Positions 9,132 through 32,512 are shown, counted from the stretch's first letter. The stretch is 40,504 bases of DNA from Fidelibacterota bacterium (GCA_049975265.1 JBNGDF010000010.1:44980-85483); one strand, 5' to 3'. The notes: generated by a model from the sequence alone, not told the origin. Program-made: numbers and translations.

Positions 9132-9668
9132 CTATTCTTTCGGTGTGTCCCAGATTTCACGACCAAAAAAATCCCAGGGCAGACGTTTCTCATCACACTC
9201 CGTTGCGTCAGGACTGAACTTGCGGTCAACGAAATAGATGATGCGCGCCAACTGCGCCGAGGCATTTTTACAACCATGGGCAATGCCGGGTGGTATCAGC
9301 ACCAGCCGCGAAATACAATCACCCATGATCAATTTCATCATCACTCCCGAAGTAGGCGAACCGTGACGTTGATCCACTAAAACCAGCACCAGTTTATCTG
9401 TCGGTGGTACGTACCAAACATCGGTCTGAAACTCATGAATGTGGAAAGCTTTGATCCCACCGGGTTCCAGCTCACTGAAGTTGATCTGCGCCAGAGTGAA
9501 TGTCGCCACTCCATCCAGTTTTCCGTTCGTCAGACGGGCGAGTTCAGTCAAAGCGCCGGTCTCATCATTGAAGCGCCGTAAGGGCAGGATTTTAACTCCG
9601 TCTATGATCGGTTTAGATGAATAGTCCTGGACCAAAAGGGAACTCTGGGCGTCATCGTTTAATTTCAT
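9132..9668 (-). CDS. dTDP-4-dehydrorhamnose 3,5-epimerase-like (RmlC cupin)
   Basis: IDGV, DETG..TE, AFHIH..QTD, DQR..SPT, IPPGIAHG motifs; ATG at 9668 preceded by AAGGA. Confidence 0.85.
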   Translation of the reverse strand: MKLNDDAQSSLLVQDYSSKPIIDGVKILPLRRFNDETGALTELARLTNGKLDGVATFTLAQINFSELEPGGIKAFHIHEFQTDVWYVPPTDKLVLVLVDQRHGSPTSGVMMKLIMGDCISRLVLIPPGIAHGCKNASAQLARIIYFVDRKFSPDATECDEKRLPWDFFGREIWDTPKE

Positions 9669-9751
9669 GGATCGTTCCTTATTTTTTCCGATAGATAACT
9701 TAATTCCATTCAAATAAAAACACAACAGATGGGTAATGTTTCCACCACAAC

Positions 9752-9780
9752 TTGACATTCCTCGCTAATGCTGCTAAATT
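9752..9780 (+). promoter_or_regulatory. Sigma70-type promoter of the nuo-like operon
   Basis: TTGACA (9752-9757), 17 bp spacer, extended TG, TAAATT (9775-9780). Confidence 0.7.
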
Positions 9781-9805
9781 TTTCCTTTAAAAATTGAAAG
9801 TCATT

Positions 9806-10066
9806 ATGAAGAATCCTCATACGGAAGCAACCAGGTCAGGGAGTATTCCCGCCCGACACGATGGATATCATCTGTTCTGGATAATATTCCAAGCCTACTG
9901 CCTGATTACCATTCTGATTCTGTTCCTGAGCGGCTATACCGTTGTTGCCGGCTCTTCTCCTCTGAAAATCCCGTTTATCATCTATGCGCTTGTCAATTCG
10001 GTGATCTACTACCGCCTTTTTTTTAGAAATCCAATCCTACGAAAACAAATTTCAAAAACCAACTAG
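9806..10066 (+). CDS. Small membrane protein, possibly a truncated, diverged NuoA-like subunit
   Basis: About 86 aa with two hydrophobic helices; first gene of the nuo-like operon; only weak resemblance to NuoA TM2-3 and no FDVE motif. Confidence 0.45.
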   Translation: MKNPHTEATRSGSIPARHDGYHLFWIIFQAYCLITILILFLSGYTVVAGSSPLKIPFIIYALVNSVIYYRLFFRNPILRKQISKTN

Positions 10067-10082
10067 CCCAAATGGTTCCGAT

Positions 10083-11186
10083 TTGATCCACCGATACCCC
10101 CTGAAAATCAACGTTCGCCTTGCGGATCAGAAGACCTTCCTCCCAATCACTCTCCGGTGTTCCGGCAACCGCATTGTGGATATCGATTGTCATTTTGCCG
10201 ATCGGCTCCGCAATATACAATTGGTCACCGATTGCGATCCCGAACAGGCTCTGTTTCCTTACCCCCATCGCTCCATAAAACTGGAATTGCTGGATCTGTA
10301 TCTGGCACAGTGTCGCCTGATAGAATCCCATTTTCAATGGACCGTGCCCGCCTACGCTGGTTTGATTCGGTCGCTGCTTATGGAGTTGCACCGTTTACTG
10401 AATCACTATCACTTTTTCCTGGCGCTCGCCATGGCTACCGAATTCCCAAAACTTATCAGAAACGCTCTTTCCGGTCGTACAGCCGTTTATCGTCTGCTCC
10501 GGGAGATTCAGTCGCATGCGGTGACCAATGATTTTTTTATTCTCGGCGGGATTGCCCGCGATCTCCCCACCGGTTTTCTGGAAAAGGTTCTGCAGACGGT
10601 GACAGCAATGCAAATTCGCTTGAAGCCCATTGAAAACCAACTACGAAAAAGGACAATATTTTCCAACCAGTTGGAAAAAATCGGTATCATCTCCCGTGAA
10701 GAAACCACAATGTGGCAATTATCCGGACCGAACCGGCAGGCATGCGATCCACTTTTATCCGCGGGGCTACCAGCCTCCAACGCTGCAAATAGTCAAAAAA
10801 AAATCCGACTAATTCTCCATTCAAAGGGCGTTCCCGGTGATGCCTGGCACCGTACCTGGGTTCGTCTTCAGGAGATACGGCAATCGCTGTACACGACTCA
10901 CAACCTGGTACAGGAAATCTTCAAAACCGAAATCGCTTTATCGACGCCCTTTCATATCGGTCGACAGCACATCGATATTACCACCGATTTCAGCAGCGCT
11001 GAGGGAACAGTAAAATGCCATATTACCCGAAACCCCGGCGAAAAGTCCTTTGCGGGAAGCTATCAATATCCCGCTGTGAATATTATCAGCCATCTTGGTC
11101 TGTTACTACGGGGACAGAGAATCTCCGACGCGGGAATAATTATAAGCAGCCTGAATCTTAATCCAATCAAACACCACATCGAATAA
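10083..11186 (+). CDS. Diverged NuoD-like (complex I 49 kDa family) protein
   Basis: ELHRLLNH, GGIARDLP, IGIISREE..LSGPN, GDAWHR..VRLQEIRQS and ISDAGIIISSLN match the NuoD scaffold. No HPSTHG or DRLDY motifs, and no CxxC pairs, so not a [NiFe] large subunit. Confidence 0.8.
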   Translation: MIHRYPLKINVRLADQKTFLPITLRCSGNRIVDIDCHFADRLRNIQLVTDCDPEQALFPYPHRSIKLELLDLYLAQCRLIESHFQWTVPAYAGLIRSLLMELHRLLNHYHFFLALAMATEFPKLIRNALSGRTAVYRLLREIQSHAVTNDFFILGGIARDLPTGFLEKVLQTVTAMQIRLKPIENQLRKRTIFSNQLEKIGIISREETTMWQLSGPNRQACDPLLSAGLPASNAANSQKKIRLILHSKGVPGDAWHRTWVRLQEIRQSLYTTHNLVQEIFKTEIALSTPFHIGRQHIDITTDFSSAEGTVKCHITRNPGEKSFAGSYQYPAVNIISHLGLLLRGQRISDAGIIISSLNLNPIKHHIE

Positions 11187-12220
11187 TGCGACTATTTTTC
11201 ACGGACAATTACAATTTCATATGCGGTGGTGGAACGATAGCCATCCTGGACAGCACTTTAAAAACTTTTTCCGGACATATCGCCAGCCTGGTATTCATCC
11301 TTTTACCCGTGCTGTGGATCATAACTGCACTACTCTCCCGTACAAACATACATACGGAGAGCCCGGACGGCAAATCATTTTTATCGCACTATAAGCAATT
11401 CTGGTTGGTAACCCGTAATCATATCCGAAATCTTTTCAGAATCGGGCAAAGCCATTTTCCACTCTTCAATTTACTCTTAGGCAGCGTCGCTTTACTAAAC
11501 TTTTGCTTACTGATGTTGTTTCCGTTGAATGTACGTCCACCCGGGCTTCGATCGGATTACGGAGCCCCCATTATCATTGCAACGTTGCTGCTGAATGTCA
11601 TCGTTTATGCCACCCGCCTTTTTTATATACCGGAAGATCGTGCCGATACCACCCTGCGCCTCAACCGCCAGTTGAGCACCGTAATTATTATGATTACCAC
11701 GAGTCTGCTGTCCGTCTGTCTGGTAAACCGGACTTTCGACCTGGAGATGATCCTGTCGAAACAACAAAACCTGTTTGTCGGGATTCTGCCCGCCTGGAAT
11801 GTTCTGCGCCATCCCATGCTATTTGGCAACGCTCTGTTTATCTTCGGTGGTTTTATTGTTATGCTTCAGATACTGAATCAGACGGTACTACATGCTCCTA
11901 ATAAAACCGATTCGCTTCACCCCTATAGCCGTTCATCGATCGGAGATACTTACATCCAGTTATGGTCCCATAGTCTCATGCTCCTGATTACGTTCAGCTA
12001 CATCTACTTTTTCTGGGGTGGTCAGTTTTTGCTACCGGGGATTGGCGGAATCTGGATCGGTCTGCTGATTAAAATCAGCCTTCTACTGTTTTTATCAAAT
12101 TGGTTCTACCGTGCGATTCCGCAACTGATCGAAGAACAGCTCATCCGGATCAGCTATACGATTATTATCCCCGTTCAGGTGATTGCACTGGTAATAACGG
12201 TTCTGTTAAATAATCCATAA
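11186..12220 (+). CDS. Diverged NuoH-like membrane subunit
   Basis: 344 aa, about 8 TM; TFDLEMILSKQ..PAWN..P, YFFWGG, LIKI..WFYRAIPQL..EQL echo NuoH; coupled to nuoD-like by a TAATG overlap. Confidence 0.7.
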   Translation: MRLFFTDNYNFICGGGTIAILDSTLKTFSGHIASLVFILLPVLWIITALLSRTNIHTESPDGKSFLSHYKQFWLVTRNHIRNLFRIGQSHFPLFNLLLGSVALLNFCLLMLFPLNVRPPGLRSDYGAPIIIATLLLNVIVYATRLFYIPEDRADTTLRLNRQLSTVIIMITTSLLSVCLVNRTFDLEMILSKQQNLFVGILPAWNVLRHPMLFGNALFIFGGFIVMLQILNQTVLHAPNKTDSLHPYSRSSIGDTYIQLWSHSLMLLITFSYIYFFWGGQFLLPGIGGIWIGLLIKISLLLFLSNWFYRAIPQLIEEQLIRISYTIIIPVQVIALVITVLLNNP

Positions 12221-12234
12221 GGAGTGATTCTGCT

Positions 12235-12693
12235 GTGACTGCCTTCACCATTATCTTCCCATTACTAATGCTCGCACTGGGCACGGCATGGCTGTTCACA
12301 AAACGGAATCCAATGAAAAATCTCCTTTTTCTTCTCATGATTCTCCTCTTGGTCCCCCAGTTTATCAAAACCTCCGGTGTACTCTGCGCCGCTGTTTTCT
12401 TGTTGGCAGGACTGGTAATGTCACTGCTTCTTATGCAGCTGCTTCCCGGCAAAGCCGATTTCCTGAAATCCCTCAAAAAGATTTCGTGGCCTGTAAAAAT
12501 CTGCTCGATGGTTTTCATCGTTATGACTGGATTGACGGTGATGCTGGTTCGGTCGGAATATCGTCACTTAAAGACGAGCCCGGCGCTACCCGACACAACT
12601 GGTAATTTTCCGGTAACTCTCTGGATTTTTCTCCTGATGGCGACACTTTTTTCGATTCAAATTTTCCTGCTGCTGAAGGACAAGGGAGAATGA
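12235..12693 (+). CDS. Diverged NuoJ-like membrane subunit
   Basis: 152 aa, about 5 TM; FTKRNPMKNLLFL resembles NuoJ (T.RNP..SAL.L); AAGGAG SD; operon position. Confidence 0.65.
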   Translation: MTAFTIIFPLLMLALGTAWLFTKRNPMKNLLFLLMILLLVPQFIKTSGVLCAAVFLLAGLVMSLLLMQLLPGKADFLKSLKKISWPVKICSMVFIVMTGLTVMLVRSEYRHLKTSPALPDTTGNFPVTLWIFLLMATLFSIQIFLLLKDKGE

Positions 12694-12697
12694 TGTA

Positions 12698-12982
12698 ATG
12701 CTTTATACGACAACTTCTATCTTACTGATTGTATGCGGGATACTGGGATTCACCATGCACCGTTTAGCCCTTCTGAAAATTCAGTCCGGTTTTCTGGTGG
12801 TCTCCGGAATACTGATCGCTTTTCCCGGAGCCAATGAACCGGCTGCGAACTCCGCAGATTGGAGCTGTTTTGCCTCAATAATCATAGTTGTTTATTTACT
12901 GATATTTTTGGCGGCGGTAACCAAAATCTATTTTCATAAATCCGCTGACACTCAAAAGAAAGGGAGCGCCAAAGAGTCATGA
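12698..12982 (+). CDS. Diverged NuoK-like membrane subunit
   Basis: 94 aa, 3 TM, G.LG motif in TM1; lies between the J-like and L-like genes. Confidence 0.65.
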   Translation: MLYTTTSILLIVCGILGFTMHRLALLKIQSGFLVVSGILIAFPGANEPAANSADWSCFASIIIVVYLLIFLAAVTKIYFHKSADTQKKGSAKES

Positions 12983-14874
12983 CCGTCACAACACTTATCG
13001 TATTTTTGCTAATGCTGCTTCCCGTTGCGGTGAATAATTTGATGCCAAATCGTCAGAGAGGTTCTATACTACTTGCTGCCGTCCCGGTATATCTGCTTGC
13101 GCTTCTTTTCTTCAGCTGGTTATTCTATCAGCTTCTTGCGACTGCACCTGATTTTGTCAAAGAAATTTCGCTTGGTCGAATGATCCTTGGGTATATGGAT
13201 CTGCCGTTTCAGTTAATCATTAATCGACAGACACTGATCAGCGGTTCAGTCCTCCTGCTGATGTTCATTATTCTGCTGCAAACTGAAATCACGCCTTCAC
13301 ATTCTGCCATCGATCATGTTCATCGCTTCAATTCGCTTTATTTGCTGTTCATTGCGGCGCTGATTTTTCTGACTGCCGACAGCTTCCTGTTGTTGACCTG
13401 TGGAATGATTTTTGTCAGTGTTGTGATAATTTATCGCGATCTTGTATTCGGGAATGAGAACAGGTCAATATCGCTTTTCACCGAATTTGTCATCCTCGAT
13501 TTGCTCTTTTTCAGTGCTGTATTAATTCTCAGCTGGAGAACATCGTGGGGTTCCCTCACGGAAATCAGCTCATCAGGAGAAGTCATTCCCATGTTGCCCG
13601 GATTGTGTTTGGTTGCACCGATTATCCTGAAAATGGTCAGGATTCCCTATTGCACATCTGGTATCAAATCACAAACCTCCACCGGAAGTGGTGTTTTTAT
13701 GGTTGGGTCAGAGGGTACGTTGATGGTTTTCCTGCTCAGATTCTTCCATCTTCTGCACGACAGCTGTTTTACATGGCTGCTGGTAGGTGGACTGTTTCTG
13801 GCTCTTTCCGCCGCCTTATCGTCCATTATGAGTCACCGCTCCGAATCGGCGCTCCAGGCGCTGCAACCGGCACAAATGGGGCTTGTATTAATTGGTTTGG
13901 GACTTCGAAGACCGGTCATCTCTCTGCTTTTTACAATCATTTATATTTTTTCAAATACTCTGTTAATCCTCAGTCACTCGGTCGCGGATAGGGGAGCAGG
14001 CAACCGCGAACAATCGAAATCGTTGTACCGCTTGTTGAGTGTCTTGATTTTTCTCTTCGCTGCCACCGCCGTTGCCGGTCTCCTGCCATGTTCCGGTTTC
14101 ACGATCAGATATTCTATGATGCTTTATTTCGCCGAAATGACACCTCTTGATTCAGCACACCGGGCACTGCTCGTTTTACTGTATTTGGCAATAATGTTGG
14201 TTGCCTTTGCTGCCTTTCGGTATTTTTTTATTACCCTGCAGAGCTGGCGCAATGCCGGTCATTCCCGATCAAACACTCTTTCCGATCAAAAATTATTCGC
14301 TGCCTTACTGATTTTACTGAATCTGTATCCGGTTTTGACTTTTCCCACCTTCAATCCCCTTAAGACGGACAGCTGGATATACCGGTTTGTAACGAAGCCG
14401 GAGACGCTTCCGCCAACTCTTCCGGCGGTTTCTAATCCCATATTCATTGCGATGATTGTTGTTCTGGCAGTAAGTTTTTTTCTGACCCTCATCATTTACC
14501 AGCTCAAACTGATGAATCTGTCCTTTCTATCGATATTTTATACTCCTTTTAAAAAATGCAACCAGGCAACCATCCGATTCTTTCATCATATAGATGAATT
14601 CTCGATAAAATTGATGCGCTTTCTCTCAAAAAGAGTCGGCATCCTTGAAAGCACGACGTTACCGGACACTGCTCAGAAAATTGCCTGCCGAACCCGTTCC
14701 GGATTTTCGAAAATCGTCGATTTTTCTCAAAAATCGCCGAATTGTCTGCGGTTTCATCAATTCAGTACGCGCCTCACCGGCAGTATCGTTCAATTTTGGC
14801 AAAACCATGATATCATTGCGTCGGTGATACTGCTGCTTATCATGGCACTGTTCATAATCATAAGCATTCTTTAA
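12979..14874 (+). CDS. Diverged NuoL-like antiporter-family subunit
   Basis: 631 aa, many TM; RF..LY.LF, LTADSF, QMGL..IGLG, AGLLP.SGF, C-terminal amphipathic region plus final TM; ATGA overlap with the K-like gene. Confidence 0.75.
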   Translation: MTVTTLIVFLLMLLPVAVNNLMPNRQRGSILLAAVPVYLLALLFFSWLFYQLLATAPDFVKEISLGRMILGYMDLPFQLIINRQTLISGSVLLLMFIILLQTEITPSHSAIDHVHRFNSLYLLFIAALIFLTADSFLLLTCGMIFVSVVIIYRDLVFGNENRSISLFTEFVILDLLFFSAVLILSWRTSWGSLTEISSSGEVIPMLPGLCLVAPIILKMVRIPYCTSGIKSQTSTGSGVFMVGSEGTLMVFLLRFFHLLHDSCFTWLLVGGLFLALSAALSSIMSHRSESALQALQPAQMGLVLIGLGLRRPVISLLFTIIYIFSNTLLILSHSVADRGAGNREQSKSLYRLLSVLIFLFAATAVAGLLPCSGFTIRYSMMLYFAEMTPLDSAHRALLVLLYLAIMLVAFAAFRYFFITLQSWRNAGHSRSNTLSDQKLFAALLILLNLYPVLTFPTFNPLKTDSWIYRFVTKPETLPPTLPAVSNPIFIAMIVVLAVSFFLTLIIYQLKLMNLSFLSIFYTPFKKCNQATIRFFHHIDEFSIKLMRFLSKRVGILESTTLPDTAQKIACRTRSGFSKIVDFSQKSPNCLRFHQFSTRLTGSIVQFWQNHDIIASVILLLIMALFIIISIL

Positions 14875-14897
14875 CCAATGGATGAAAGGCAAGATAT

Positions 14898-16385
14898 ATG
14901 GGAAATCACCTGCTTTTGATCACACTCTTTCTCCCGCTCATCGGGGCACTGATTATTCTGTTTATAAAGGAAAAGAAGTCGACGGTAATCCGGTCTGTGG
15001 CGGCAATTGTCTGCGGTTTACAACTCTGGATCGTGGTTCAGTTGCTCACCACCTTCGATAAAACTGCAACCTGGCTGCAATTTGGGGAACATATCCGCTG
15101 GATTGACTTTCTTGATATTAATTTTATCATCGGTATTGACGGAATCAACCTGGTTTTCCTGAATCTCTCGGGCATCATTTTTCTTGCAACGGTATTCATC
15201 AGCCGGCAGATTTCCAACCGGCAGAAATCTTTTTATACCTTGTTGATGATATTAAATATCGGTATTACCGGTGTGTTGATTGCCTTCGATCTATTTTTGT
15301 TTTTGATGTTTTACGGACTGACCCTCTTTTCCATGTTTCTTCTGGTTACCCTGTTCCCTGCACAGGAAAGCGATATCCGTTCCGGGCATTTCGGAATGAA
15401 TGTACTTATCTCCTTTTGCCTGATGATAATCGGAATCCTGATCCTGAACCACCAAAATCCAAATGCCGGATTCAATCTGGTCACATTCATGCGGAGTGCC
15501 ACCGTGCCGGGAAATGTCAGCACCGTCGGATTTTTCATCGTTTTCATCGGTTTTCTGTTCATTACACCGGTCTTCCCCTTTCACTCCTGGCTTGCAGCTA
15601 CTGCCAATAATACCATCATTCCCGTCGCGATTCTGGTTCTGTCAATTTTTTCGCAAATCGGAATTTTTGGGATGCTGCATATAGTATTGCCGCTCTTCGC
15701 TCACCATGCGACACACTATGCAATTCTCTTCAGCATTCTCGGATTGATCGGTATCCTGTACTACGCCGTCTGCGTCTTCAGCTTTTCAAATTTCAAGAAA
15801 ATTACAACTTATGCAGCGGGCTATCTGAACGGCTTCGTCTTTTTGGGATTGGCAGCGCTGCTGGCAACACATCATCTGCCGGATGCAGCTTTCAGCGGTC
15901 TCAATGGAGCGGTTATTCAGACTGTTGCTTCGGCGCTTCTGATAATGACCATGTTACTCATACCAAAGGCTTATCAGCACATCATTACCGCAGCGACAGC
16001 CACTGTCAATCATCAATGGCCGTTAAAGCTCATAATAATCTTGATTCTGTGCGCAGCTATCGGTTTACCGGGATTTCCAATCTTTGTGGGACAATTTCTA
16101 TGCTTAACCGGTTCGTTTCAGGTTCTTTCGACCCGGATCATTTCGATTGTTGCGCTGGCTGGATTGATCATCGTCGGCATCCAATTTTTCAGAATTATCC
16201 GCAGCATCGTCCGGCGGAGCGACGAGTACGATTTCAGTGTCAACACAGCCGAAATAGACAACGAGCGCGTCATTCTGCCCCTGGTTCTCAGCGTACTTTT
16301 TATTTGCGGTATCTTCCCCAACCTGATTCTGAAAATTCTGGATCAAAGCATTCATGTCCTGATCCAATCACTAACAGGCATGTAG
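14898..16385 (+). CDS. NuoM-like antiporter-family subunit
   Basis: 495 aa; FLPLIGA, QF.E...WI, GIDGI, DLFLF, PVFPFHSWL, GLPG..FVG, GIFPN. Confidence 0.85.
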   Translation: MGNHLLLITLFLPLIGALIILFIKEKKSTVIRSVAAIVCGLQLWIVVQLLTTFDKTATWLQFGEHIRWIDFLDINFIIGIDGINLVFLNLSGIIFLATVFISRQISNRQKSFYTLLMILNIGITGVLIAFDLFLFLMFYGLTLFSMFLLVTLFPAQESDIRSGHFGMNVLISFCLMIIGILILNHQNPNAGFNLVTFMRSATVPGNVSTVGFFIVFIGFLFITPVFPFHSWLAATANNTIIPVAILVLSIFSQIGIFGMLHIVLPLFAHHATHYAILFSILGLIGILYYAVCVFSFSNFKKITTYAAGYLNGFVFLGLAALLATHHLPDAAFSGLNGAVIQTVASALLIMTMLLIPKAYQHIITAATATVNHQWPLKLIIILILCAAIGLPGFPIFVGQFLCLTGSFQVLSTRIISIVALAGLIIVGIQFFRIIRSIVRRSDEYDFSVNTAEIDNERVILPLVLSVLFICGIFPNLILKILDQSIHVLIQSLTGM

Positions 16386-16394
16386 CCGAATCAC

Positions 16395-17777
16395 ATGAAT
16401 ATCAGTGCCAGTCTGTTCTATTTTATCCCGGAATTGATCCTTCTGCTCAATATCCTTATCCTGTTTTTCTTCGCAGACATCCGTCAGAAGCGGCTCCTGA
16501 TTTTATTAAAAGCATTTCTGCTTGCCGGTTTTTCAGCCGTAATTATCCTCAATATCGGCTGTCTGGCAGACCTGCCACGGGGTCTTTTTTCCAATCATTT
16601 CGTCCGGGACCCTTTCGCCAGTCTCTTTGGTATCGTTCTGGTTATTCTTTTTTTCGTTTTGAATGCCAACCTCCTCTGTCAGTTTCAAAAGGGTGCTCAT
16701 TTTCGGGAGCTGATGAACCGAACACTCAGCCTGATGGCAGTGCTACTCCTGGTGAAAGCCAATTCACTAACCGCTCTTGTCCTCTGTTTCGGATTAATCT
16801 TCATTTCCCATACCCTTTCCAACGAACCATCGAAAAGTGAAAATTCCGGCAATTTTGCTACCATGCAAATTCATCTGCTTTCCTTTGGAATGCTGCTATT
16901 CGGATTCTGGATAATCCACACCCTGTCCGGTACATTCTATTTTTCCAATATGGATGGCGCTGCAACCTCCCTGTACAAGAATCCGGTAATTGCATGCTAT
17001 CTATTCCTTCTTCTGACCACCGGATTCGGGCTTTACGGTATTCTGATCCCATTTTACGGTTTACATAACCATCGAAATTCCTTCAACGGGATTTGGGATT
17101 CCGGATATTTTCTGCCGCTTTTAGGACTGTTTGCGACACTGATCCGCCTGATGAACATTCTTTTCCCGGAGAATACCTCCCTGGCTACTCCATCCGGAAA
17201 AATCACAGTGTTCGCCGCGGGTTTATCAACCTGTCTGATGCTCGGCGCCAACCTTTATTATTTACAACGAAAAAACAGATCCAATCTTTTCAACGCCGCT
17301 CTGGTGATTCATTATGCCATGACACTGATCGGACTGACACGCCTGAATCCGCACTCTGCGGCAGCTGTCATCTATTTCATGCTCAGTGCAACTCCGATGT
17401 TTGCCGGAATTACATTATTACGACGAGATAATCATCATTCCGGTGCCGACAAATATTTACTTACCATCTTCTATCTCGGACTGCTTGGTCTGCCCGGAAC
17501 TTCAGGATTTGCAGGGCGGTTTCTGCTGATGAAAACACTGCTTGACAGCGGGATATCGATTGGGATCATCATTATCAGTTTTCTGTTTTCAGTACCGCTG
17601 GTTTTCTATTTTTGCCGCGAAATTATCGGTTTGTACACAGCCCCCGAAAAGCCTGCCGAGTTTGCCGGGCGAGACCGGCTGATGCCGATTTTCCTGGCGC
17701 TGGTTACGTTGGCAACCGGCATATTCTGGGAACCTTTTTTTGAAATAATCACTAAAACTATCGTATTTTTTCCATAA
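16395..17777 (+). CDS. Diverged NuoN-like antiporter-family subunit
   Basis: 460 aa; PELIL, F..DPFA, LLFG..I..LSGT, GLPGTSGFAG, FYF.R.I..LY, GIFW.P. Confidence 0.8.
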   Translation: MNISASLFYFIPELILLLNILILFFFADIRQKRLLILLKAFLLAGFSAVIILNIGCLADLPRGLFSNHFVRDPFASLFGIVLVILFFVLNANLLCQFQKGAHFRELMNRTLSLMAVLLLVKANSLTALVLCFGLIFISHTLSNEPSKSENSGNFATMQIHLLSFGMLLFGFWIIHTLSGTFYFSNMDGAATSLYKNPVIACYLFLLLTTGFGLYGILIPFYGLHNHRNSFNGIWDSGYFLPLLGLFATLIRLMNILFPENTSLATPSGKITVFAAGLSTCLMLGANLYYLQRKNRSNLFNAALVIHYAMTLIGLTRLNPHSAAAVIYFMLSATPMFAGITLLRRDNHHSGADKYLLTIFYLGLLGLPGTSGFAGRFLLMKTLLDSGISIGIIIISFLFSVPLVFYFCREIIGLYTAPEKPAEFAGRDRLMPIFLALVTLATGIFWEPFFEIITKTIVFFP

Positions 17778-17789
17778 GGAGCATCCAAC

Positions 17790-18422
17790 ATGACAAACCT
17801 CGAAAAACAGCCACTCTTTTTTGACGTGGATACCCAGATAGATTTTATCGAAACCGCCGGCGCGCTGTACGTTCCCGGCGCCGAAACACTTAAGCCCCGT
17901 TTCAGGCAGCTGGTCCGTTATGCCCGTATAAATCACATTCCCATCTGGGGCAGCGTCGATGCTCACCATCCTGAAGACGCCGAACTGAACCGGAATGATG
18001 GTCCCTTTCCGGACCACTGTATGCAGGGCAGCCCCGGTCAGCCAAAAATCGCCGAAACCATGCCGACCAATCCCACCTGGATCGAAAACAGACCCTACTC
18101 CCCTGCGGAATTGACCGAAATACTCCGACATCCCGATGAAATCTACTTCCTGAAACAGACATTCAATATGTTCGACAATCCGAATCTGGAATCCCTTGTC
18201 AGCGATTTTAATCCCATCGTCGTATTTGGAGTCGCCACCGATTATTGTGTTCTGGCGGCGGTAATGGGGTTTCTGGACCTGGGCAAAACAGTTTATCTGG
18301 TTGCCGATGCCGTAAAAGCCGTAACACCTGAGGACGGTCAAAACGCACTGAAAAAAATGCAGGCAAAGGGCTGCCTCATCGTCACCACTGACGATATCGT
18401 CAACGGTTATCTGGAAAAATAA
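17790..18422 (+). CDS. pncA: Nicotinamidase/isochorismatase-family cysteine hydrolase
   Basis: DVDTQIDF..GAL.VP, D.H, FPDHC, K..F, FGVATDYCV catalytic motifs; AAGGAG SD. Confidence 0.85.
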   Translation: MTNLEKQPLFFDVDTQIDFIETAGALYVPGAETLKPRFRQLVRYARINHIPIWGSVDAHHPEDAELNRNDGPFPDHCMQGSPGQPKIAETMPTNPTWIENRPYSPAELTEILRHPDEIYFLKQTFNMFDNPNLESLVSDFNPIVVFGVATDYCVLAAVMGFLDLGKTVYLVADAVKAVTPEDGQNALKKMQAKGCLIVTTDDIVNGYLEK

Positions 18423-18688: not shown

Positions 18689-18888
18689 ATTCAAAGTGCT
18701 ATTCCAGAGGATTACAGAGCAGTATATTAAAATTGAACCACCGGGTTTTACCTGTTCAAAATAACCTTTTACTGAAAACCAACCATCTCATTTTCCCCCA
18801 TATAACGCAAAGCATATCTTATAGCCAAATTCTGATTTTCATTTATTCATTATTCCTCTAAATTTATTCCTTGAACAAAGGAATCCCC

Positions 18889-21858
18889 ATGAACGATCTG
18901 ATTTACTATTACAACAAATTCAAATACGGCGAAGACAGCTTTCACTACCTGATGGCGAACAAGGTAAAGGAAATTCTGCTGATCTCCACCTTCTATGACG
19001 CCTTTATTTTCGAGCAGGACGGACGGCTTTCGGAACAGATTTATGGCGATTACCGCCAACTCAACCTGAGTACCGCCCCGATGATCACCAGTGTACCCAC
19101 AGGGGAAGAGGCACTGCGACAATTAAAAACCAAAAAATTCGATCTGGTCATCTCCATGCTTCATATCGGCAAGACGACGGCTTTTGAAATTGCCAAAAAG
19201 ATCAAAGAATTCGATCCGAATCTGCCGGTATTACTGCTTCTGAATATGCAATCAGACCTGAGCCTGCTTAAAAATTATACTAACATGCTGCAATATTTTG
19301 ACAATATCTTCCTCTGGCGCGGCGATGCCAAAATCTTCCTTGCTATGGTAAAATCCATTGAGGATTGGCGCAATCTGGACTACGATACAAAATACGGTCT
19401 GGTAAAGGTCATTCTGCTTGTCGAGGATTCGATTCCCTTCTATTCAACACTCCTGCCGCTGCTGTATGAGGAAATCGTCAAGCAGACGCAAATCCTGATT
19501 CACGAAGAGCTCAACGACATTAACAAACGCCTCCGTATGCGTGTCCGTCCCAAGGTCATTCTGGCGCACAATTACGAAAAGGCAATGGAAATTTACGAGA
19601 AATATACCGAGTATATTATTGCCGTCATTTCTGATATCAGCTTCGATCGCAACAGTCGCCTTGATCCCGACGCCGGTATCAGGCTGATCTCCAAAGTCAA
19701 GGAAAACATTTACGATATACCCACCATCCTGATGTCCTCGGATTCCAACAACCGTCGGAAAGCAGAAGAGATCGGAGCCATGTTTCTCGATAAAAATTCA
19801 AAACACCTGCTGCGTGATCTGCGCCAGTTTATGCTGAACAATATCGGCTTCGGGGACTTCATATTTCGCGATGAAAATGGCATTGAAATTGATCGCGCCC
19901 GCAGCCTCTATGAATTCGAAGAAAAACTGAAAAATATTCCCGACAATTCGATTCTTTATCACAGCCGCAGGAACCACTTCTCCGCCTGGCTGATGGCGCG
20001 CGGCGAAACCCAGATCGCCAAACGAATCCGCCTGCTGACTGTCCAGGACTTCAAATGCACCGCCAACATGCGCAAACATCTCGAAAATACACTTCACGAA
20101 ATCCGGAAAAACCGTACCAAAGGGAAAATCGTCAACTTCCACCCTGCCAGTCTTTACGAAACCGATGAGATTATCCGTCTCACCGAAGGATCACTGGGTG
20201 GCAAAGGGCGCGGACTGGCGTTTTTGAACTCACTGCTGGTCAGCATGGAATTCGATAAACGCTTTACCGATGTCAACATCTGTCTCCCCAGCACCCAAAT
20301 CATCGGTACCAATGAATTCGACGATTTCCTGCGCAATAACAAGATCAACGAAAAAATCAGCGACGGCTTGAGTGATCGGGAGATCGATGAAATCTTTCAA
20401 GCCGGGAAACTCTCCTACCAACTGGTCGACCATTTACGCATTATGCTGCAACACATCCACTATCCGTTGGCGGTACGCTCTTCCGGTCTGCTGGAGGACT
20501 CCTTTTCGCAACCCTTTGCCGGTATCTATCGGACCTATATGCTCCCCAATAATCACCCGGATCTGAATACCCGACTGAAGCAGCTTACCGACGCAATCAA
20601 ACTCGTTTTTGCCTCGGTCTTCATCAAAAGCGCCCGAACCTACATCGAAAATCTCAATCATCAGATTGAAGAAGAAAAGATGGCTGTCATTATCCAGCAG
20701 GTGGTGGGTTCTCAGTTCGGCGATTACTACTATCCACATATTTCCGGCGTAGCCCAGTCGCACAACTATTACCCGCTGGCAAACCTTAAAAATGAAGACG
20801 GGATCGCATCCATTGTTGTCGGGTTGGGGAAATCGGTCATCGAGGGTGGCAAACATTTCCGCTTTTGTCCCAAGTATCCAAAAATCGAATTTTTACAGAA
20901 TAAAAGCCTGCTGGAAGACTCCCAGAAAAAATTTTACGCCATCAACATGCTGAATCGGGAATTTGACCTGATTCAGGGAGAAGAGGCGACCATCGACAAT
21001 ATTGACCTCACCGTCGCCGAAAAGGACGGTGCTCTGCAACATGCAGCCTCTGTGTGGGACAGTGAAAACCAGCGTCTGGTTCCGGGACTGACCAAAGAGG
21101 GTCTGCGGATCATTACCTTCGATAATATCCTGAAGTATGATTATTTCCCGCTCGCTGCCATTATCACAGATATCCTCGATATAGGCGAACGGGCTTTCGG
21201 CATGCCGGTGGAAATCGAATTTGCCGTCAATCTAACCCGCAACCGGGCGGAAAATATTATGCCCTCTTTTTATATTTTGCAAATTCGACCCCTGGCAGTC
21301 AGTTCGGAAGACGTAGACCTTAGCCACGAGCAGTTCGACCCAAATGACCTCCTGATCTACACCGGGCGGAGTATGGGCAACGGTATTGTCACCGGAATCC
21401 GTGATATTATTTACGTCGATCCGCAGAAATTTGACAAACTGGAAACCATCAAAATCAAAGACGAAGTAGAATACCTGAATGATAAAATGAAACAGGCGGG
21501 TAAAGAATATATCCTGATCGGACAGGGGCGCTGGGGTTCTCAGGACCGCTTTCTGGGTATACCGGTTCGGTATGTCAACATCAGCGGAGCTAAAGTGATT
21601 GTCGAAATGGGTACTGAGGGGTTTTCTGTTGATCCTTCTCAGGGCACCCATTTTTTCCACAATATCATCGCCATGCAGACCGGCTATTTTACCATACCCC
21701 ATGATTCAAAACAGGACGTCATCAACTGGAAATGGCTAAAACACCAACCGGTGGTGGAAAAGACCGAACATCTTGTCCATGTCCGCTGCAGCAATTCGCT
21801 GACCATAAAAATGGACGGCAAACACGGCATCGCAGCGGTATTAAAAACCGCAGATTGA
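18889..21858 (+). CDS. Receiver-domain + PEP/pyruvate-binding (PPDK_N) protein
   Basis: Two receiver-like regions (FDLVIS; LLVEDS..VISD), then GSLGGKGRGL, PLAVRSS.LLED..QPFAG.Y, EEKMAV, PVEIEFA, LQIRP; ATG at 18889 after AAGGA. Confidence 0.88.
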   Translation: MNDLIYYYNKFKYGEDSFHYLMANKVKEILLISTFYDAFIFEQDGRLSEQIYGDYRQLNLSTAPMITSVPTGEEALRQLKTKKFDLVISMLHIGKTTAFEIAKKIKEFDPNLPVLLLLNMQSDLSLLKNYTNMLQYFDNIFLWRGDAKIFLAMVKSIEDWRNLDYDTKYGLVKVILLVEDSIPFYSTLLPLLYEEIVKQTQILIHEELNDINKRLRMRVRPKVILAHNYEKAMEIYEKYTEYIIAVISDISFDRNSRLDPDAGIRLISKVKENIYDIPTILMSSDSNNRRKAEEIGAMFLDKNSKHLLRDLRQFMLNNIGFGDFIFRDENGIEIDRARSLYEFEEKLKNIPDNSILYHSRRNHFSAWLMARGETQIAKRIRLLTVQDFKCTANMRKHLENTLHEIRKNRTKGKIVNFHPASLYETDEIIRLTEGSLGGKGRGLAFLNSLLVSMEFDKRFTDVNICLPSTQIIGTNEFDDFLRNNKINEKISDGLSDREIDEIFQAGKLSYQLVDHLRIMLQHIHYPLAVRSSGLLEDSFSQPFAGIYRTYMLPNNHPDLNTRLKQLTDAIKLVFASVFIKSARTYIENLNHQIEEEKMAVIIQQVVGSQFGDYYYPHISGVAQSHNYYPLANLKNEDGIASIVVGLGKSVIEGGKHFRFCPKYPKIEFLQNKSLLEDSQKKFYAINMLNREFDLIQGEEATIDNIDLTVAEKDGALQHAASVWDSENQRLVPGLTKEGLRIITFDNILKYDYFPLAAIITDILDIGERAFGMPVEIEFAVNLTRNRAENIMPSFYILQIRPLAVSSEDVDLSHEQFDPNDLLIYTGRSMGNGIVTGIRDIIYVDPQKFDKLETIKIKDEVEYLNDKMKQAGKEYILIGQGRWGSQDRFLGIPVRYVNISGAKVIVEMGTEGFSVDPSQGTHFFHNIIAMQTGYFTIPHDSKQDVINWKWLKHQPVVEKTEHLVHVRCSNSLTIKMDGKHGIAAVLKTAD

Positions 21859-25311: not shown

Positions 25312-25767
25312 ATGCCGGAACCCACTTCCTTTTTAACCCATTTGGAGAAAGACAGAAGCAATCTAATCAAAGCCCTGCAATTGACCCAGGAAGCCGAGGG
25401 CTATATTTCCGATGAAGCGGTACGGATTATTTCCGACTATTTTGCGCTTCCGCCAGTGGATGTCGAAGGCGTTCTGAGTTTTTATGCTCAATTCAAGCGT
25501 ACCAAGCCGGGGAAATATATCATTTCCGTCTGTGACGGTACCGCCTGTCATATCAAAGGCTCCAGTCTGGTCGCCAACTGGATCACCGATTTTCTGGGCA
25601 TCAAAAGTGGCGAAACCGATAAGGACGGTCTTTTCTCCCTGGAAACCGTCGCCTGTCTCGGCTGTTGCAGTCTGGCGCCGGTCATCAGCATTAACGGTAA
25701 GGTTTTCGGGAATCTGGACCGAAAAAAACTGTTAAAAGTCCTTAAAAAATATAAACAGACGGGATAA
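25312..25767 (+). CDS. NuoE/HydC-like [2Fe-2S] subunit (StnA-like)
   Basis: C-DGTA-C..CLGCC motif; AAGGAG SD. Confidence 0.92.
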   Translation: MPEPTSFLTHLEKDRSNLIKALQLTQEAEGYISDEAVRIISDYFALPPVDVEGVLSFYAQFKRTKPGKYIISVCDGTACHIKGSSLVANWITDFLGIKSGETDKDGLFSLETVACLGCCSLAPVISINGKVFGNLDRKKLLKVLKKYKQTG

Positions 25768-25768
25768 C

Positions 25769-27481
25769 ATGATAAAACGGATCAAAATCGGTACCGGGAG
25801 TTGCGGACTAGCCGCCGGCGCAGGCGAGGTATATGACTTCTTCAGAGAAAATATTCGGGATATAGACGTTATCGGCGTGGGCTGTATCGGGCACTGTTAT
25901 GCCGAACCGCTGGTGGAGGTGGAAACGGATCAGGGATCCGTTTTTTATGAAAAGGTCGAACCAACCCAGGTTTTTATTGATAAAATACGCAATCTCGATG
26001 AGCAATCGCGGTTGAAATTTCGTCCGGAACGCCGGGAACGGGAGCGGCTCAAAGTCACCCGGCTCGCCGGACGGATCGATCCCACCTCTATTGACGAATA
26101 CCTCAAAAACGGTGGTTACAGCGCCCTCACGAAAGCCATGACCATACCGCCCGAGCAAGTCGTCGAGGAAGTAAAACGATCGGGATTACGCGGACGCGGT
26201 GGAGCCGGCTTTCCTACCGGTCTGAAATGGAGCTTTCTCCAAAAAAGCAGGAATTCGGACAAGGTATTGATCTGCAACGCCGATGAAGGTGATCCGGGTG
26301 CCTTTATGGATCGTTCAATGATGGAATCGGTGCCCCATCAGGTCCTGGAAGGGATGCTGATCGCAGCCTATGCGACCGGAGCCACCCTCATTTTTATCTA
26401 TTGCCGGGCGGAGTATCCCTTAGCCATCAAACATCTTAAAACCGCCATTGATCAGATTATAAAACATGGTTTAAATCAGATAGGCGACCGAAAACTGACG
26501 ATTCAAATTAAAGAGGGTGCCGGTGCGTTTGTCTGCGGTGAAGAGACCGCCATGATCCACTCTCTGGAAGGCAGCCGGGGAACACCGCGATTCCGTCCGC
26601 CTTACCCCACCGATTCCGGCTTCAAAGGTCTGCCGACCATGATCAATAACGTCGAAACCTTCGCAAATATCCCGATCATTATCAATGAAGGCGGCGCCGA
26701 ATTCGCTAAAATCGGTACAGAAAAAAGCAAGGGAACCAAACTTTTCGCTCTCGCCGGCGATCTGAAATACCCAGGACTGGTGGAGGTTCCCATGGGAATC
26801 ACACTGGGCGAGATTGTCTACGACATCGGCGGCGCGGAAAAGGGGAGCGTCAAAGCCGTCCAGATCGGCGGTCCCAGCGGCGGCTGCATCCCGGCGGAAC
26901 ATTTCGATGTCAGAATCGACTACGACTCACTAAAATCGCTGGGCGCCATTATGGGCTCCGGCGGTCTGATCTTCATCGGTCAGAATCGCTGTATGGTGGA
27001 AACCGCCCGCTATTTCCTCGATTTTACGACCCGGGAAAGTTGCGGAAAATGCACCTTCTGCCGCATCGGGACTAAGCGTATGCTGGAGACCTTGGAGCGA
27101 ATTACCCACGGCAAAGGGGTGCCGGAAGATATTGAATTTCTTGAGGATCTTGGAAAAAAAATAATCAAGGGCTCGCTTTGTGGTCTGGGTCAATCGGCAC
27201 CCAACCCGGTATTGACAACCTTACGCTACTACCGCCATGAATATGAACGGCATGTTATCGACAAACGGTGTGATGCGCTGGTCTGCAACGATCTGGTCCG
27301 GGTCTTTATCAACAAATCCAACTGTATCGAATGCGGACTCTGTATCAAAAACTGCCCCGTCAATGCCATTTCCGACAATTATGTCATTGATGATACCATC
27401 TGTACCCGATGCAACAGCTGTATTGAAGTCTGTCCCAAAAACACCATTTCACGAATAGCGGGAGGAAATGCCGGTGTCTGA
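25769..27481 (+). CDS. NuoF/HydB-like FMN/NADH subunit with C-terminal 2[4Fe-4S] (StnB-like)
   Basis: GLRGRGGAGFPTG, NADEGDPGAFMDR, GAGAFVCGEET, GGPSGG, ESCGKCTFCR, two CxxCxxCxxxCP motifs. Confidence 0.93.
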   Translation: MIKRIKIGTGSCGLAAGAGEVYDFFRENIRDIDVIGVGCIGHCYAEPLVEVETDQGSVFYEKVEPTQVFIDKIRNLDEQSRLKFRPERRERERLKVTRLAGRIDPTSIDEYLKNGGYSALTKAMTIPPEQVVEEVKRSGLRGRGGAGFPTGLKWSFLQKSRNSDKVLICNADEGDPGAFMDRSMMESVPHQVLEGMLIAAYATGATLIFIYCRAEYPLAIKHLKTAIDQIIKHGLNQIGDRKLTIQIKEGAGAFVCGEETAMIHSLEGSRGTPRFRPPYPTDSGFKGLPTMINNVETFANIPIIINEGGAEFAKIGTEKSKGTKLFALAGDLKYPGLVEVPMGITLGEIVYDIGGAEKGSVKAVQIGGPSGGCIPAEHFDVRIDYDSLKSLGAIMGSGGLIFIGQNRCMVETARYFLDFTTRESCGKCTFCRIGTKRMLETLERITHGKGVPEDIEFLEDLGKKIIKGSLCGLGQSAPNPVLTTLRYYRHEYERHVIDKRCDALVCNDLVRVFINKSNCIECGLCIKNCPVNAISDNYVIDDTICTRCNSCIEVCPKNTISRIAGGNAGV

Positions 27482-29510
27482 TATCAGGATTACTATTGAT
27501 CATAAAATCTGTAACGCCAAAAGCGGTCAAACCATTCTGGAAGTTGCCCGGGAAAACAATATTTTCATCCCGACACTCTGCTACAACGAAAACATCACCC
27601 ACAACACCGCCTGCTTTGTCTGCGTGGTTAAAGATACCGGGACAGGGCGGTTCTTACCCAGCTGTGCCGCTCTGGCGGTGGACGGCATGGTCGTCGAATC
27701 GAACTCTGATGAGGTTCGCGATATGCGCAGGACGGCACTGAATTTATTGCTTTCGGAACACATTGGCGATTGCGAAGCCCCCTGTACGATGGCTTGCCCG
27801 GCACATGCCAATGTGGAGGAATACGTTCGCGCCGGTCGCAATAGAGACCTGCTGGGAGCACTGAAAATCATCAAGCAGCGTATACCGCTGCCTCTCTCCA
27901 TTGGTCGTGTCTGTCCCCGGTTTTGTGAAAAGGACTGCCGCCGCAATATTATCGATAAACCGGTGGCGATTAATGATGTCAAACGTCTCGCCGCCGATTT
28001 ATATTACGAAAGCTACATGGAAGATGTACCAGAACTGAACGGCAAGAAGGTCGCCATCATCGGCGCCGGACCGGGTGGTTTGGGTGCCGCCTATTTTCTG
28101 CGACTGAATGGCATCGCCGCCGACATTTACGATCAAATGCCCGAAGCCGGCGGTATGCTGCGCTATGGTATTCCCGAATACCGCCTACCGAAAAGCATTC
28201 TCGATAAAGAGATCGCCCACTTTGGAAAAATGGGCGGCATTGCTTTCTTCTTAAACCGGAAACTCGGTGCCGATCTTTCTCTCAAAGAGCTGAATCGTCA
28301 ATACGACGCCATCGTCATTGCCATCGGGTCCTGGCAACCGGCGCCCATGCGGGCGGAGGGCGAAGAACTGGCTGAGGGCGGCATTCGCTGGCTGGAAAAA
28401 ATTGCCCGCAATGGTTGGTGTGGTGAAAATCCCGGTAAAACCATTGTCATCGGCGGCGGCAATACCGCCATGGACTGCGCGCGGACAGCGGTACGCCTGG
28501 GAAAAGGTCAAAACGAGGTTTATTGCTACTACCGCCGCACTGAAAAGGAGATGCCCGCTGAGCAGATCGAGATCGACGAAGCCCGGAAAGAGGGCGTCAT
28601 TTTTGAGTTTTTAACCGCACCGGTTCGGCTTGCAGAGAAAAACGGGAAGAAAGTCCTGACCTGCATGCGCATGAAACTGGGTGAACCGGACGCTTCCGGT
28701 CGGCGCAGACCAATTCCCATCGAAGGTTCTGAATTCGATGTGGAAGCCGATACAGTCATTGCCGCTATCGGTCAAAAAACCGTTGCACCTGAATTTTTAT
28801 CAATAAACCGCTGGGGCGATATTGATGTGAACAAAGATAACAACCAGATGGCGGATAAAATCTTCAGCGCTGGTGACTGTGTCACCGGTCCGGCGACCGT
28901 GGTGGAGGCGGTGGCAGCCGCACGCCGCGCCGCTCTCGGCATTGTGGCATATCTGAAAGGTGAAAAATACAAAGAGCCATACACCATCAACGTCAGCCGT
29001 GGTCACTGGCAGTCATTGCGGAAAGAAGATCTCGTTTTCCTCAGAAACGTACGCCAGTCGGACCGCCAGCCGCTGCACCTCATCTCCCTGGAAGAAAGGA
29101 AAACAACCTTTAATGAGGTCTCCCGAACCTTCACTGTTGATGAAGTCGCCGCCGAAGGTGAACGCTGTCTGGAGTGCTCCTGCACCGCCAAACACGATTG
29201 CAAACTGAAAGAGTATTCCGAAATCTACGGTGCTCATCCCGAAGGCGTCGCTGGTGAAAAATTGCGCTATAATTTCGACACCCGGCATCCGTCAATCATT
29301 CTTGACCGTAATAAATGCATCAAATGCGGCATCTGCATCAAGGTCTGTAAGGAGGTTGTCAATCTCTCGCTATTGGGATTTAAACAGCGGGGATTTCATA
29401 CTTATCTCGACACAGCGTACGATGAACCTCTACCCACCACCTGCGCCGGATGCGGACAATGTATCGACGCCTGTCCCGTCGGTGCTCTCGATTGGAAAGA
29501 AAAGAGCTGA
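27468..29510 (+). CDS. NuoG-N/GltD fusion Fe-S flavoprotein (short StnC-like)
   Basis: IPTLC..CFVC..C [2Fe-2S]; DCEAPC..ACP, GRVCPRFCE.DC; FAD GAGPGG; NADPH GGGNTAMD..YRR; C-terminal CIKCGIC and CAGCGQC; no H-cluster or Mo domain. Confidence 0.88.
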   Translation: MPVSDIRITIDHKICNAKSGQTILEVARENNIFIPTLCYNENITHNTACFVCVVKDTGTGRFLPSCAALAVDGMVVESNSDEVRDMRRTALNLLLSEHIGDCEAPCTMACPAHANVEEYVRAGRNRDLLGALKIIKQRIPLPLSIGRVCPRFCEKDCRRNIIDKPVAINDVKRLAADLYYESYMEDVPELNGKKVAIIGAGPGGLGAAYFLRLNGIAADIYDQMPEAGGMLRYGIPEYRLPKSILDKEIAHFGKMGGIAFFLNRKLGADLSLKELNRQYDAIVIAIGSWQPAPMRAEGEELAEGGIRWLEKIARNGWCGENPGKTIVIGGGNTAMDCARTAVRLGKGQNEVYCYYRRTEKEMPAEQIEIDEARKEGVIFEFLTAPVRLAEKNGKKVLTCMRMKLGEPDASGRRRPIPIEGSEFDVEADTVIAAIGQKTVAPEFLSINRWGDIDVNKDNNQMADKIFSAGDCVTGPATVVEAVAAARRAALGIVAYLKGEKYKEPYTINVSRGHWQSLRKEDLVFLRNVRQSDRQPLHLISLEERKTTFNEVSRTFTVDEVAAEGERCLECSCTAKHDCKLKEYSEIYGAHPEGVAGEKLRYNFDTRHPSIILDRNKCIKCGICIKVCKEVVNLSLLGFKQRGFHTYLDTAYDEPLPTTCAGCGQCIDACPVGALDWKEKS

Positions 29511-31429: not shown

Positions 31430-31581
31430 CCGCTTCCAACCCGTTGTTCATTGAAAAGATAGGCATAAGTGGCATACAATATCAACCATTATCAATATCG
31501 CCCTGCGTTCTGCCGTCTGTGATTTTTTTTGGTATATGCATCTGGCAGATATTGTTAAAACTCCCTATATTATTCATTGCA

Positions 31582-32328: not shown

Positions 32329-32346
32329 CAGCAAATCAATGACACC

Positions 32347-32416
32347 AAAACCTTCGGAAGGTTTTTAATAAAACCCCATTCCTATTGAAAATTACTCGTG
32401 AAACCTTCCGAAGGTT
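32347..32416. repeat. REP-like palindrome doublet (left of the blaI cassette)
   Basis: AAAACCTTC-G-GAAGGTTTT and AACCTTC-C-GAAGGTT, centres at 32356 and 32409. Confidence 0.85.
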
Positions 32417-32441
32417 GACTAAGTAATTTTCAAATTTTTAC

Positions 32442-32470
32442 TTGACATCTACTACTATACTCCTTACATT
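32442..32470 (+). promoter_or_regulatory. Sigma70 promoter of the blaI-like operon
   Basis: TTGACA (32442-32447), 17 bp, TACATT (32465-32470). Confidence 0.75.
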
Positions 32471-32485
32471 ACTACAGTTGTAGTA
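32470..32485. promoter_or_regulatory. BlaI/MecI/CopY operator
   Basis: TACTACA-GT-TGTAGTA palindrome containing the family consensus TACA-NN-TGTA, over the predicted +1 of the cognate repressor gene. Confidence 0.85.
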
Positions 32486-32512
32486 GGATAACGACATCAA
32501 TCGGAGTAGAAA

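Follow-up and report, generated by a model that had tools for sequence, protein, structure and literature searches.

The 11-subunit form of complex I, which consists of NuoA-D and NuoH-N, has been called the engine of energy coupling in complex I (Moparthi & Hagerhall 2011, PMC3144371). In the group 4 complexes (Mbh, Mbx/Mbs and Ehr) subunits of the D, H and antiporter-like types are likewise encoded in one operon and the B- and I-type iron-sulphur (Fe-S) subunits are kept; in Ehr and Mbx the ancestral catalytic ligands are also missing. Mrp antiporters have neither a D nor an H subunit and contain MrpE, MrpF and MrpG. Here we analyse a stretch of 40,504 nucleotides from a Fidelibacterota bacterium (GCA_049975265.1, JBNGDF010000010.1:44980-85483; hereafter the window), in which homologues of nuoA, nuoD, nuoH, nuoJ, nuoK, nuoL, nuoM and nuoN follow one another in nuo order within positions 9752..17777, nuoB, nuoC, nuoI and nuoE/F/G being absent. 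This is a real, conserved and apparently undescribed variant of the complex I operon, a descendant but not a functional member of the 11-subunit family. With a probability of about 0.85 we consider that its proteins, called A-like to N-like below, carry out neither redox chemistry nor coupled pumping and are still functional: electron transfer is not expected because the Fe-S subunits are missing, nor coupled pumping because the relay is missing, and redox-driven pumping by the operon products is very unlikely.

Gene content and architecture of the operon

The eight open reading frames (ORFs) are uninterrupted, lie in one direction and are separated, from A-like to N-like, by 16, -1, 14, 4, -4, 23 and 9 bp (Table 1), so that the co-directional run with gaps of at most 23 bp described in the original prediction is borne out. 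The same is true of the order A-D-H-J-K-L-M-N, since in a comparison of profiles built only from degenerate sequences with profiles built only from canonical ones the same-named subunit was the best match in eight of eight cases (probability 91-100%), off-diagonal matches being confined to L, M and N. The Pfam and NCBIfam hidden Markov models (HMMs) recognise the D-, H-, M- and N-like proteins, most of them below cut-offs, and the K-like protein only weakly, and gave no match for the A-, J- and L-like ones; the assignments obtained are to Nuo families and not to a described complex lacking B, C and I. The AlphaFold model of the D-like protein has a template-modelling score of about 0.7-0.75 to NuoD/49-kDa chains and a single low-confidence loop (residues 226-242), while the L-like model retains the long transverse helix and the last transmembrane (TM) helix and matches NuoL/ND5. 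The A-like gene probably starts at the ATG at 9806, its first TM helix and quinone-site loop having been lost. Translational coupling with Shine-Dalgarno (SD) sites, also predicted, stands in part: SD-like motifs are visible before the J-, K- and L-like genes and are not clear before the A-, D-, H- and N-like ones.

Table 1. Coordinates of the operon, its promoter motif and the adjoining genes in the window
Feature	Position	Strand	Basis and remarks
Putative sigma70-type promoter motif	9752..9780	+	-35 TTGACA, 17 bp, TG, -10 TAAATT; conserved in kin
NuoA-like	9794..10066	+	hhalign 90.9% to canonical NuoA; TM helices predicted: 2 (canonical NuoA: 3)
NuoD-like, soluble	10083..11186	+	Pfam PF00346 1e-21; model with predicted local distance difference test (pLDDT) 86
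NuoH-like	11186..12220	+	Library HMM weak; profile-profile match; E-channel and acidic-loop Glu lost
NuoJ-like	12235..12693	+	hhalign 98.0%; conserved TM3 Tyr lost
NuoK-like	12698..12982	+	hhalign 98.6%; both key Glu lost
NuoL-like	12979..14874	+	Profile-profile match; AlphaFold model; transverse helix kept
NuoM-like, best conserved subunit	14898..16385	+	TIGR01972 9e-69 (below cut-off); alignments to solved NuoM/NdhD
NuoN-like	16395..17777	+	Library HMM weak; profile-profile match
Nicotinamidase/isochorismatase-family gene, not a subunit	17790..18422	+	Library HMMs; starts 12 bp after the N-like gene
RmlC-like cupin gene, conserved divergent neighbour, outside the complex	9132..9758	-	Library HMM; also in operon-less kin

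The junctions leave no space for nuoB and nuoC between the A- and D-like genes or for nuoI between the H- and J-like genes, and a profile search of the junctions gave no remnant of the three, in agreement with what had been proposed from the sequence. The genome of the window (2.86 Mb, 95.3% complete) was translated in six frames into 35,236 segments, among which an unfiltered search with the NuoB, NuoC and NuoI profiles of the phylum found no orthologue of any of them; its further matches were confined to a soluble hydrogenase, through the small subunit, and to short stretches of the ferredoxin type. Other genes of the B, C, D and I types occur there only as two sets, on contigs C4 and C20, each in a complete cluster with its own D and H, and judged by gene content these clusters look Mbx-like and Mbh-like; the names Mbh, Mbx/Mbs and Ehr are used here for clusters whose gene content we take to be that of these complexes. 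Among 42 genomes of the class, in the phylum Marinisomatota/Neomarinimicrobiota, a profile search that covered NuoB and NuoI but not NuoC gave no orthologue of the operon type. The NuoB-like matches (the best at 4.5e-46) adjoin another D-type gene or sit near contig ends, the ten NuoI-like matches at E<=1e-8 are all long (600-aa) fusion-type genes, and the B- and I-type genes of the class belong to group 4 clusters (Mbh-, Mbx- and Ehr-like). In none of the class loci bearing the D-like gene are B, C or I found where a nuo operon would have them. Canonical-type nuoD loci served as the control: where the flank was long enough, B lay upstream in 61 of 62 cases and I downstream in 49 of 50. Long spacers lie at the former nuoI position in genus g3 (419 bp, L051:8240-8658; 574 bp, L052:10395-10968), and neither in them nor in the upstream gaps was a nuoI or nuoB remnant matched. 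Another spacer, of 580 bp and likewise free of any nuoI remnant in the search, separates the M- and N-like genes in G021 (L178:2811-3390). One further locus, L281, has a NuoD with all four tested motifs; for about 8 kb to either side no other nuo gene was detected on the same strand.

It could be supposed that the operon contributes to a working redox pump that borrows its B-, C- and I-type subunits from the Mbh-/Mbx-like complexes, or that uses unlinked nuoB and nuoI genes, given the two sets on C4 and C20 and a NuoE/NuoF-like pair 7.5 kb downstream of the operon. This explanation is largely refuted and scarcely credible: both sets stand in complete clusters beside their own D and H, the genome search and, for B and I, the class search left no unlinked or borrowable candidate, and the D-like protein is without the RxEK, RxDY and terminal DR motifs, the pumping residues being gone anyway. 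The genes at 25312-29510 of the window encode NuoE-like and NuoF-like proteins and a 680-aa GltD-like Fe-S flavoprotein, divergent from a glutamate dehydrogenase gene; from their sequences they look like a soluble NAD(P)H-linked module rather than the missing nuoEFG.

Lost and retained residues

In the NuoD of Thermus, His38 and Tyr87 bind quinone (PMC4758237). The D-like protein of the window keeps 3 of 14 canonical key residues; its helical core is preserved, and the residues of the quinone site and the NuoB interface are lost. Across the class the D-like copies keep 0-5 of the 15 residues that are invariant in seven canonical kin: the quinone-site Tyr occurs in 0/28 and the His in 3/28 (g11 only, in a poorly aligned region), the terminal DR pair occurs in none, and the RxEK and RxDY motifs are also lost. 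The two Thermus positions presumably fall on the motifs tallied here. According to the alignments and residue tallies the catalytic residues are truly lost and not hidden by misalignment. Canonical fold residues account for 26 of the 27 columns conserved among the D-like proteins, so that no new active site is evident.

The proton relay of complex I is formed by GluTM5/LysTM7 pairs, by TM8 and TM12 sites and by the E-channel glutamates (PMC10212512, PMC9271201). In the L-like proteins the TM5 Glu is kept in 0/19 and His334, His338 and Lys342 in 0/21 each, the exit histidines being replaced by aromatic or aliphatic residues and Lys342 by Asn in 16/21, whereas the TM6 Asp (15/20) and a Lys or Arg at TM7 (20/21) and TM12 (21/21) persist; the window copy keeps Asp174 (TM6), Lys218 (TM7) and Arg377 (TM12) and lacks the TM5 Glu and the His and Lys of the exit path. 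The N-like proteins keep the TM5 Glu in 5/23 and a TM12 Lys or Arg in 23/23, and most copies have lost the TM7 and TM8 Lys; in the window copy the TM5 Glu and both Lys are gone, and Arg375 of TM12 and His306 remain. Glu36 and Glu72 of the K-like protein survive in 3/21 and 2/21, Glu157 and Glu241 of the H-like protein in 0/27 each, Tyr59 of the J-like protein in 0/22 and the E-channel Glu of the A-like protein in 0/23. Thus most of the central axis of L, M and N and of the E-channel glutamates of H, A and K that distinguish complex I is gone, although homologues of its subunits stand in nuo order. The losses are graded, g3 keeping most canonical residues and the genus of the window fewest. The interchange of Lys and Arg at the basic sites that are kept agrees more readily with a fixed charge than with a proton relay, and no subunit has a continuous polar path, the exit histidines being lost in L and, in most copies, the TM7 and TM8 lysines in N.

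An Na+/H+ antiporter freed from the redox arm has to be weighed against these losses. Deactive bovine complex I exchanges Na+ for H+ once it is disconnected from the redox domain (PMC3464577), the operon shares with it and with Mrp cofactor-free membrane subunits of the L, M, N, K and J types, and the genome encodes Rnf and Nqr-like genes, from which it probably uses a sodium cycle. Nevertheless, the antiporter-like fold is defined by TM5 Glu/TM7 Lys pairs and by TM12 sites (PMC10212512), and these are broken in the L-, M- and N-like proteins, so that the charged axis of Mrp is interrupted; the operon contains no MrpB, MrpE, MrpF or MrpG gene and, with its D and H homologues, does not have the MrpA-G set; and intact Mrp-type modules are found in other clusters of the same genome. 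Antiport, whether Mrp-like or of the deactive complex I kind, is therefore very improbable.

A second transport hypothesis, an uncoupled passive transporter or channel whose net-positive interior would be better matched to an anion or an anionic lipid than to H+ or Na+, draws on the M-like protein. This subunit is the most constrained of the eight (ratio of nonsynonymous to synonymous substitution rates, dN/dS, 0.15), keeps the TM8 Lys and His241 in 24/26 each and carries changes fixed across the class: the TM5 Glu is Gly in 25 copies and Ala in one, and a new Asn is present in 24/26. Together with the Lys342 to Asn change of the L-like protein and the replacement of Glu241 of the H-like protein by Lys or Arg in 24/27, such changes, once fixed, can be a sign of a new function. 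However, the absence of a continuous polar path noted above applies to every subunit. The M-like protein itself has a hydrophobic residue in place of the TM7 Lys in 26/26 and keeps the TM12 Glu in 3/26. In the copy of the window TM5 Glu is Gly140, TM7 Lys is Ile222, TM8 Lys is Gln253 and TM12 Glu is Gln399, so that even the TM8 Lys is missing there. Moreover, the D-H pair of g11 (see below) exists with no antiporter-like subunit and therefore transport cannot explain the whole operon. We regard passive transport as unlikely.

Descent, distribution and selection

In a 53-row tree the 26 M-like proteins form one clade (Shimodaira-Hasegawa-like approximate likelihood ratio test 100) inside a clade with seven NuoM of the phylum (98). 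Path lengths are about 2.4 changes per site for the M-like protein of the window and about 0.25 for one canonical kin, an evolution about tenfold faster. A 61-row D tree, a quick tree with several long branches and without the approximately unbiased test, sets the 28 D-like proteins and two database proteins apart from all others (100); next to them come the intermediate P0011 and the 11-subunit NuoD of the phylum, with Mbh, Mbx and Ehr far off. On sequence grounds these trees show a vertical descent of the operon from the 11-subunit complex I of the phylum, with which it shares gene order, folds and promoter type and from which it differs in the absence of NuoB, NuoC and NuoI, in the loss of the quinone-site and relay residues and in its rate. 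A profile search of 1.84 billion representatives ranked the family members at the top, followed by NuoD proteins that were canonical or divergent in other ways, and gave no sign of the clade outside the class, proteins being judged without their gene contexts. In P0011 the quinone His and Tyr are gone, but RxEK and the terminal DR are still present, and the protein branches between canonical NuoD and the D-like proteins; it is possibly an early stage of degeneration, and a search for its context yielded, among the matches, only canonical-type loci at <=53% identity. A further group of database proteins related to NuoD (P0022, P0023, P0025, P0047, P0058, P0064, P0102, P0108, P0118, P0123 and P0147) holds 2-8 of 15 key residues and is not close to the family; they may have degenerated independently or belong to other group 4 families. 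Atlas searches matched only NuoD/NuoH-type or unnamed clusters, and a single-protein scan of genome contigs found nothing.

The D-like gene is present in 28 of the 42 class genomes and the M-like gene in two more, so that 30 hold parts of the operon (28/30 in family f1, 1/1 in f2, 1/9 in f3 and 0/2 in f4), and in 16 the whole A-D-H-J-K-L-M-N run lies on one contig. Missing genes may reflect assembly gaps, as in G015, which has no M- or N-like match and whose contig ends inside the J-like gene. A canonical A-B-C-D-H-I-J-K-L-M-N operon is found in seven kin that belong to other classes of the phylum. In genus g11 (L053, L197 and L198, from G022, G016 and G026; 89-96% complete) only the D-H pair remains in 3/3 genomes, inside contigs, with unrelated flanking genes and the same promoter motif; the locus has neither the A-like nor the J- to N-like genes, and genome searches did not find M-, L-, N- or K-like orthologues elsewhere. 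Two nearly identical copies of the M-like gene occur on different contigs of G027 (L074 and L181), by either duplication or strain mixing. Kin of family f5 (L060/L061, L062/L063 and L070) carry two complex I operons close together, one with 11 subunits and one with E/F/G, an extra antiporter-like gene and a B-sized gene after nuoN.

Selection was estimated by the Nei-Gojobori method, the values of at most six independent congeneric pairs being pooled and the codons bootstrapped; the pairs G024/G027 and G000/G002 (saturation) and pairs sharing a genome were left out, and dS is saturated among the canonical kin, which give no reliable baseline. The pooled dN/dS is 0.35 (0.26-0.48) for A, 0.19 for D, 0.17 for H, 0.20 for J, 0.26 for both K and L, 0.15 for M and 0.23 for N, with upper 95% limits all <=0.48; single-pair outliers are A at 1.06 (one short pair) and an L fragment at 0.65 (one pair). 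No stop or frameshift was found in the 28 D-like loci or the 16 single-contig operons, and two copies suspected to be broken in g6 (G011 and G020) are intact ORFs. The operon is under purifying but relaxed selection, and it does not present the dN/dS near 1, the interrupted frames and the eroded promoter of a decaying pseudogene cluster. The near-consensus promoter of the original prediction is present as a motif, although a match to the motif is not in itself above chance in the window (19 sites against 15.9 +/- 4.6 in shuffles; the exact motif has 8 copies in the genome). Its significance comes from conservation across loci: hexamers and 17-bp spacing are identical in 26 of the 28 D-like loci, with conserved spacer bases, the two others having a one-base variant and no motif, respectively. 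The motif is also kept where a genus has different genes upstream, is similar to sites that precede canonical nuoA in four of the seven kin and is absent beside the RmlC-like gene in 11/11 loci where no operon follows. Purifying selection and promoter conservation together imply some function.

An entrenched vestige that decays very slowly, selection acting mainly against misfolded membrane protein and pieces being lost lineage by lineage, would agree with the roughly tenfold acceleration, with a dN/dS that exceeds the value for the RmlC-like gene next to it two- to threefold, with a gradient of residue loss that runs from g3 to the genus of the window and with whole or partial losses in G013, g11, f3 and f4. 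Yet 8 kb of operon without any use would be expected to vanish or at least to lose the promoter, and here the motif is identical in 26 of 28 loci though the proteins are down to about 20% identical, and neither the D-like loci nor the whole operons contain a stop or frameshift; we hold such a vestige to be quite improbable.

Putative function and neighbouring genes

With no electron transfer or coupled pumping expected, the eight proteins likely still build a sealed non-redox membrane complex, as far as can be judged from their sequences. Within that frame we tentatively favour, at somewhat short of even odds, a putative structural or regulatory membrane scaffold centred on the D- and H-like proteins, because there is no polar path, Lys and Arg interchange, no new catalytic cluster has appeared in the D-like protein and the D-H pair survives alone. 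A selected non-redox role, as first proposed, is thus supported, whereas selection is relaxed, erosion continues and a scaffold, channel or sensor is only a candidate form of that role. In the ancestor of the class, apparently anaerobic and equipped with Rnf, Mbh and a V-type ATPase, the Fe-S and quinone arm would have become useless and been deleted; the lateral Glu-Lys switches would then have been exchanged for small or hydrophobic residues, closing the proton wire, and the Lys and Arg at helix breaks may have been retained for folding. What remains would be a cytoplasmic D-like domain anchored on the H-like protein, the membrane arm serving as an inherited assembly context. It is possible, if somewhat doubtful, that the class turned complex I in this way into a cofactor-free, carboxylate-free and positively lined machine whose minimal unit is NuoD and NuoH.

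The genome of the window gave no haem-copper oxidase match and encodes a V-type ATPase K subunit, two Rnf-like clusters and one Nqr-like cluster. MqnA and MenB are over the cut-off in 0/42 class genomes, one of them being intact in 10/19 other genomes of the phylum; the UbiA search did not discriminate (60/61). The class may be UBA2242, which has been linked to fermentative genes (PMC8630151).

Several observations weigh against the scaffold and, in part, against a retained function. Loss of quinone respiration as the trigger is plausible but only suggestive, since MqnA and MenB are both absent also in four of the seven canonical-operon kin, MenG/UbiE occurs in 14 of the 42 class genomes (not in that of the window) and the genome of the window encodes Nqr-like genes. 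The operon is dispensable in some kin: in G013 it has been cleanly deleted together with the promoter motif, leaving the flanking genes 198 bp apart (L185:1355-2740), and it was not found in G007, in eight of nine f3 genomes or in either f4 genome. Erosion of the operon is ongoing, given that the H-like protein of G002 (L038:6107-6952) has lost, in frame, about 63 N-terminal residues including TM1 and that the A-like protein of the crown group lacks one TM helix; the M-like protein of the window has also lost the TM8 Lys. Two flanking genes, with dN/dS of 0.09 and 0.14, are under stronger constraint than the operon, and the strongest constraint measured, 0.11 and 0.06 for the D- and H-like genes of g11 (one pair), rests on pairs with dS near 1. 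Finally, no co-distributed scaffold partner was found, the RmlC-like neighbour occurring in 35 of the 42 class genomes, operon-less ones included, for which reason a functional link to it was rejected.

By gene set, residues and trees the operon is neither a functional complex I nor a group 4 or Mrp system, and the view that its combination of genes matches no known system is upheld: there is no B- or I-type Fe-S subunit and no NiFe CxxC, the D- and M-like proteins branch apart from Mbh, Mbx and Ehr, and the Mrp gene set and charged axis are wanting. In the full-text literature, with most subscription journals outside the search, no description of a nuo operon without B, C and I and stripped of these residues was found, and the string nuoADHJKLMN had no match among the papers listed. 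A 2025 HMM survey places 2171 species in an 'incomplete' complex I class, which it leaves unanalysed (10.1101/2025.03.13.643058) and which may include such operons, and nuoA-N has been reported in a Marinimicrobia metagenome-assembled genome, with no analysis of residues (PMC8359207). The class has kept the eight-gene form, or two genes in g11, without an Fe-S subunit, a quinone site or a continuous proton wire; if assembled, the complex would serve as a naturally occurring null for the coupling mechanism and would let non-respiratory roles of complex I be addressed directly, and if the cofactor-free machine is real, a second, non-respiratory function of complex I has outlived electron transfer and proton pumping. 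The graded series from canonical kin through the intermediate NuoD, g3, the crown genera and the D-H pair to clean deletion documents how a large machine is dismantled or repurposed, and annotation as NADH dehydrogenase would wrongly credit such bacteria with complex I respiration.

Of the neighbouring genes, the nicotinamidase/isochorismatase-family gene may be co-transcribed with the operon; it follows the N-like gene in some kin and not in g4, g6, g7, g11 or G030. At 18871-21858 of the window lies a 995-aa fusion of a response regulator and PPDK_N that is highly conserved (96% to that of G002), and in several kin this gene stands near nicotinamidase-like and glutamate dehydrogenase genes. 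Farther downstream (31444-34250) a gene of the metallo-beta-lactamase fold is followed by a BlaI-like repressor and a C-terminal fusion of BlaR1 M56 and TonB.

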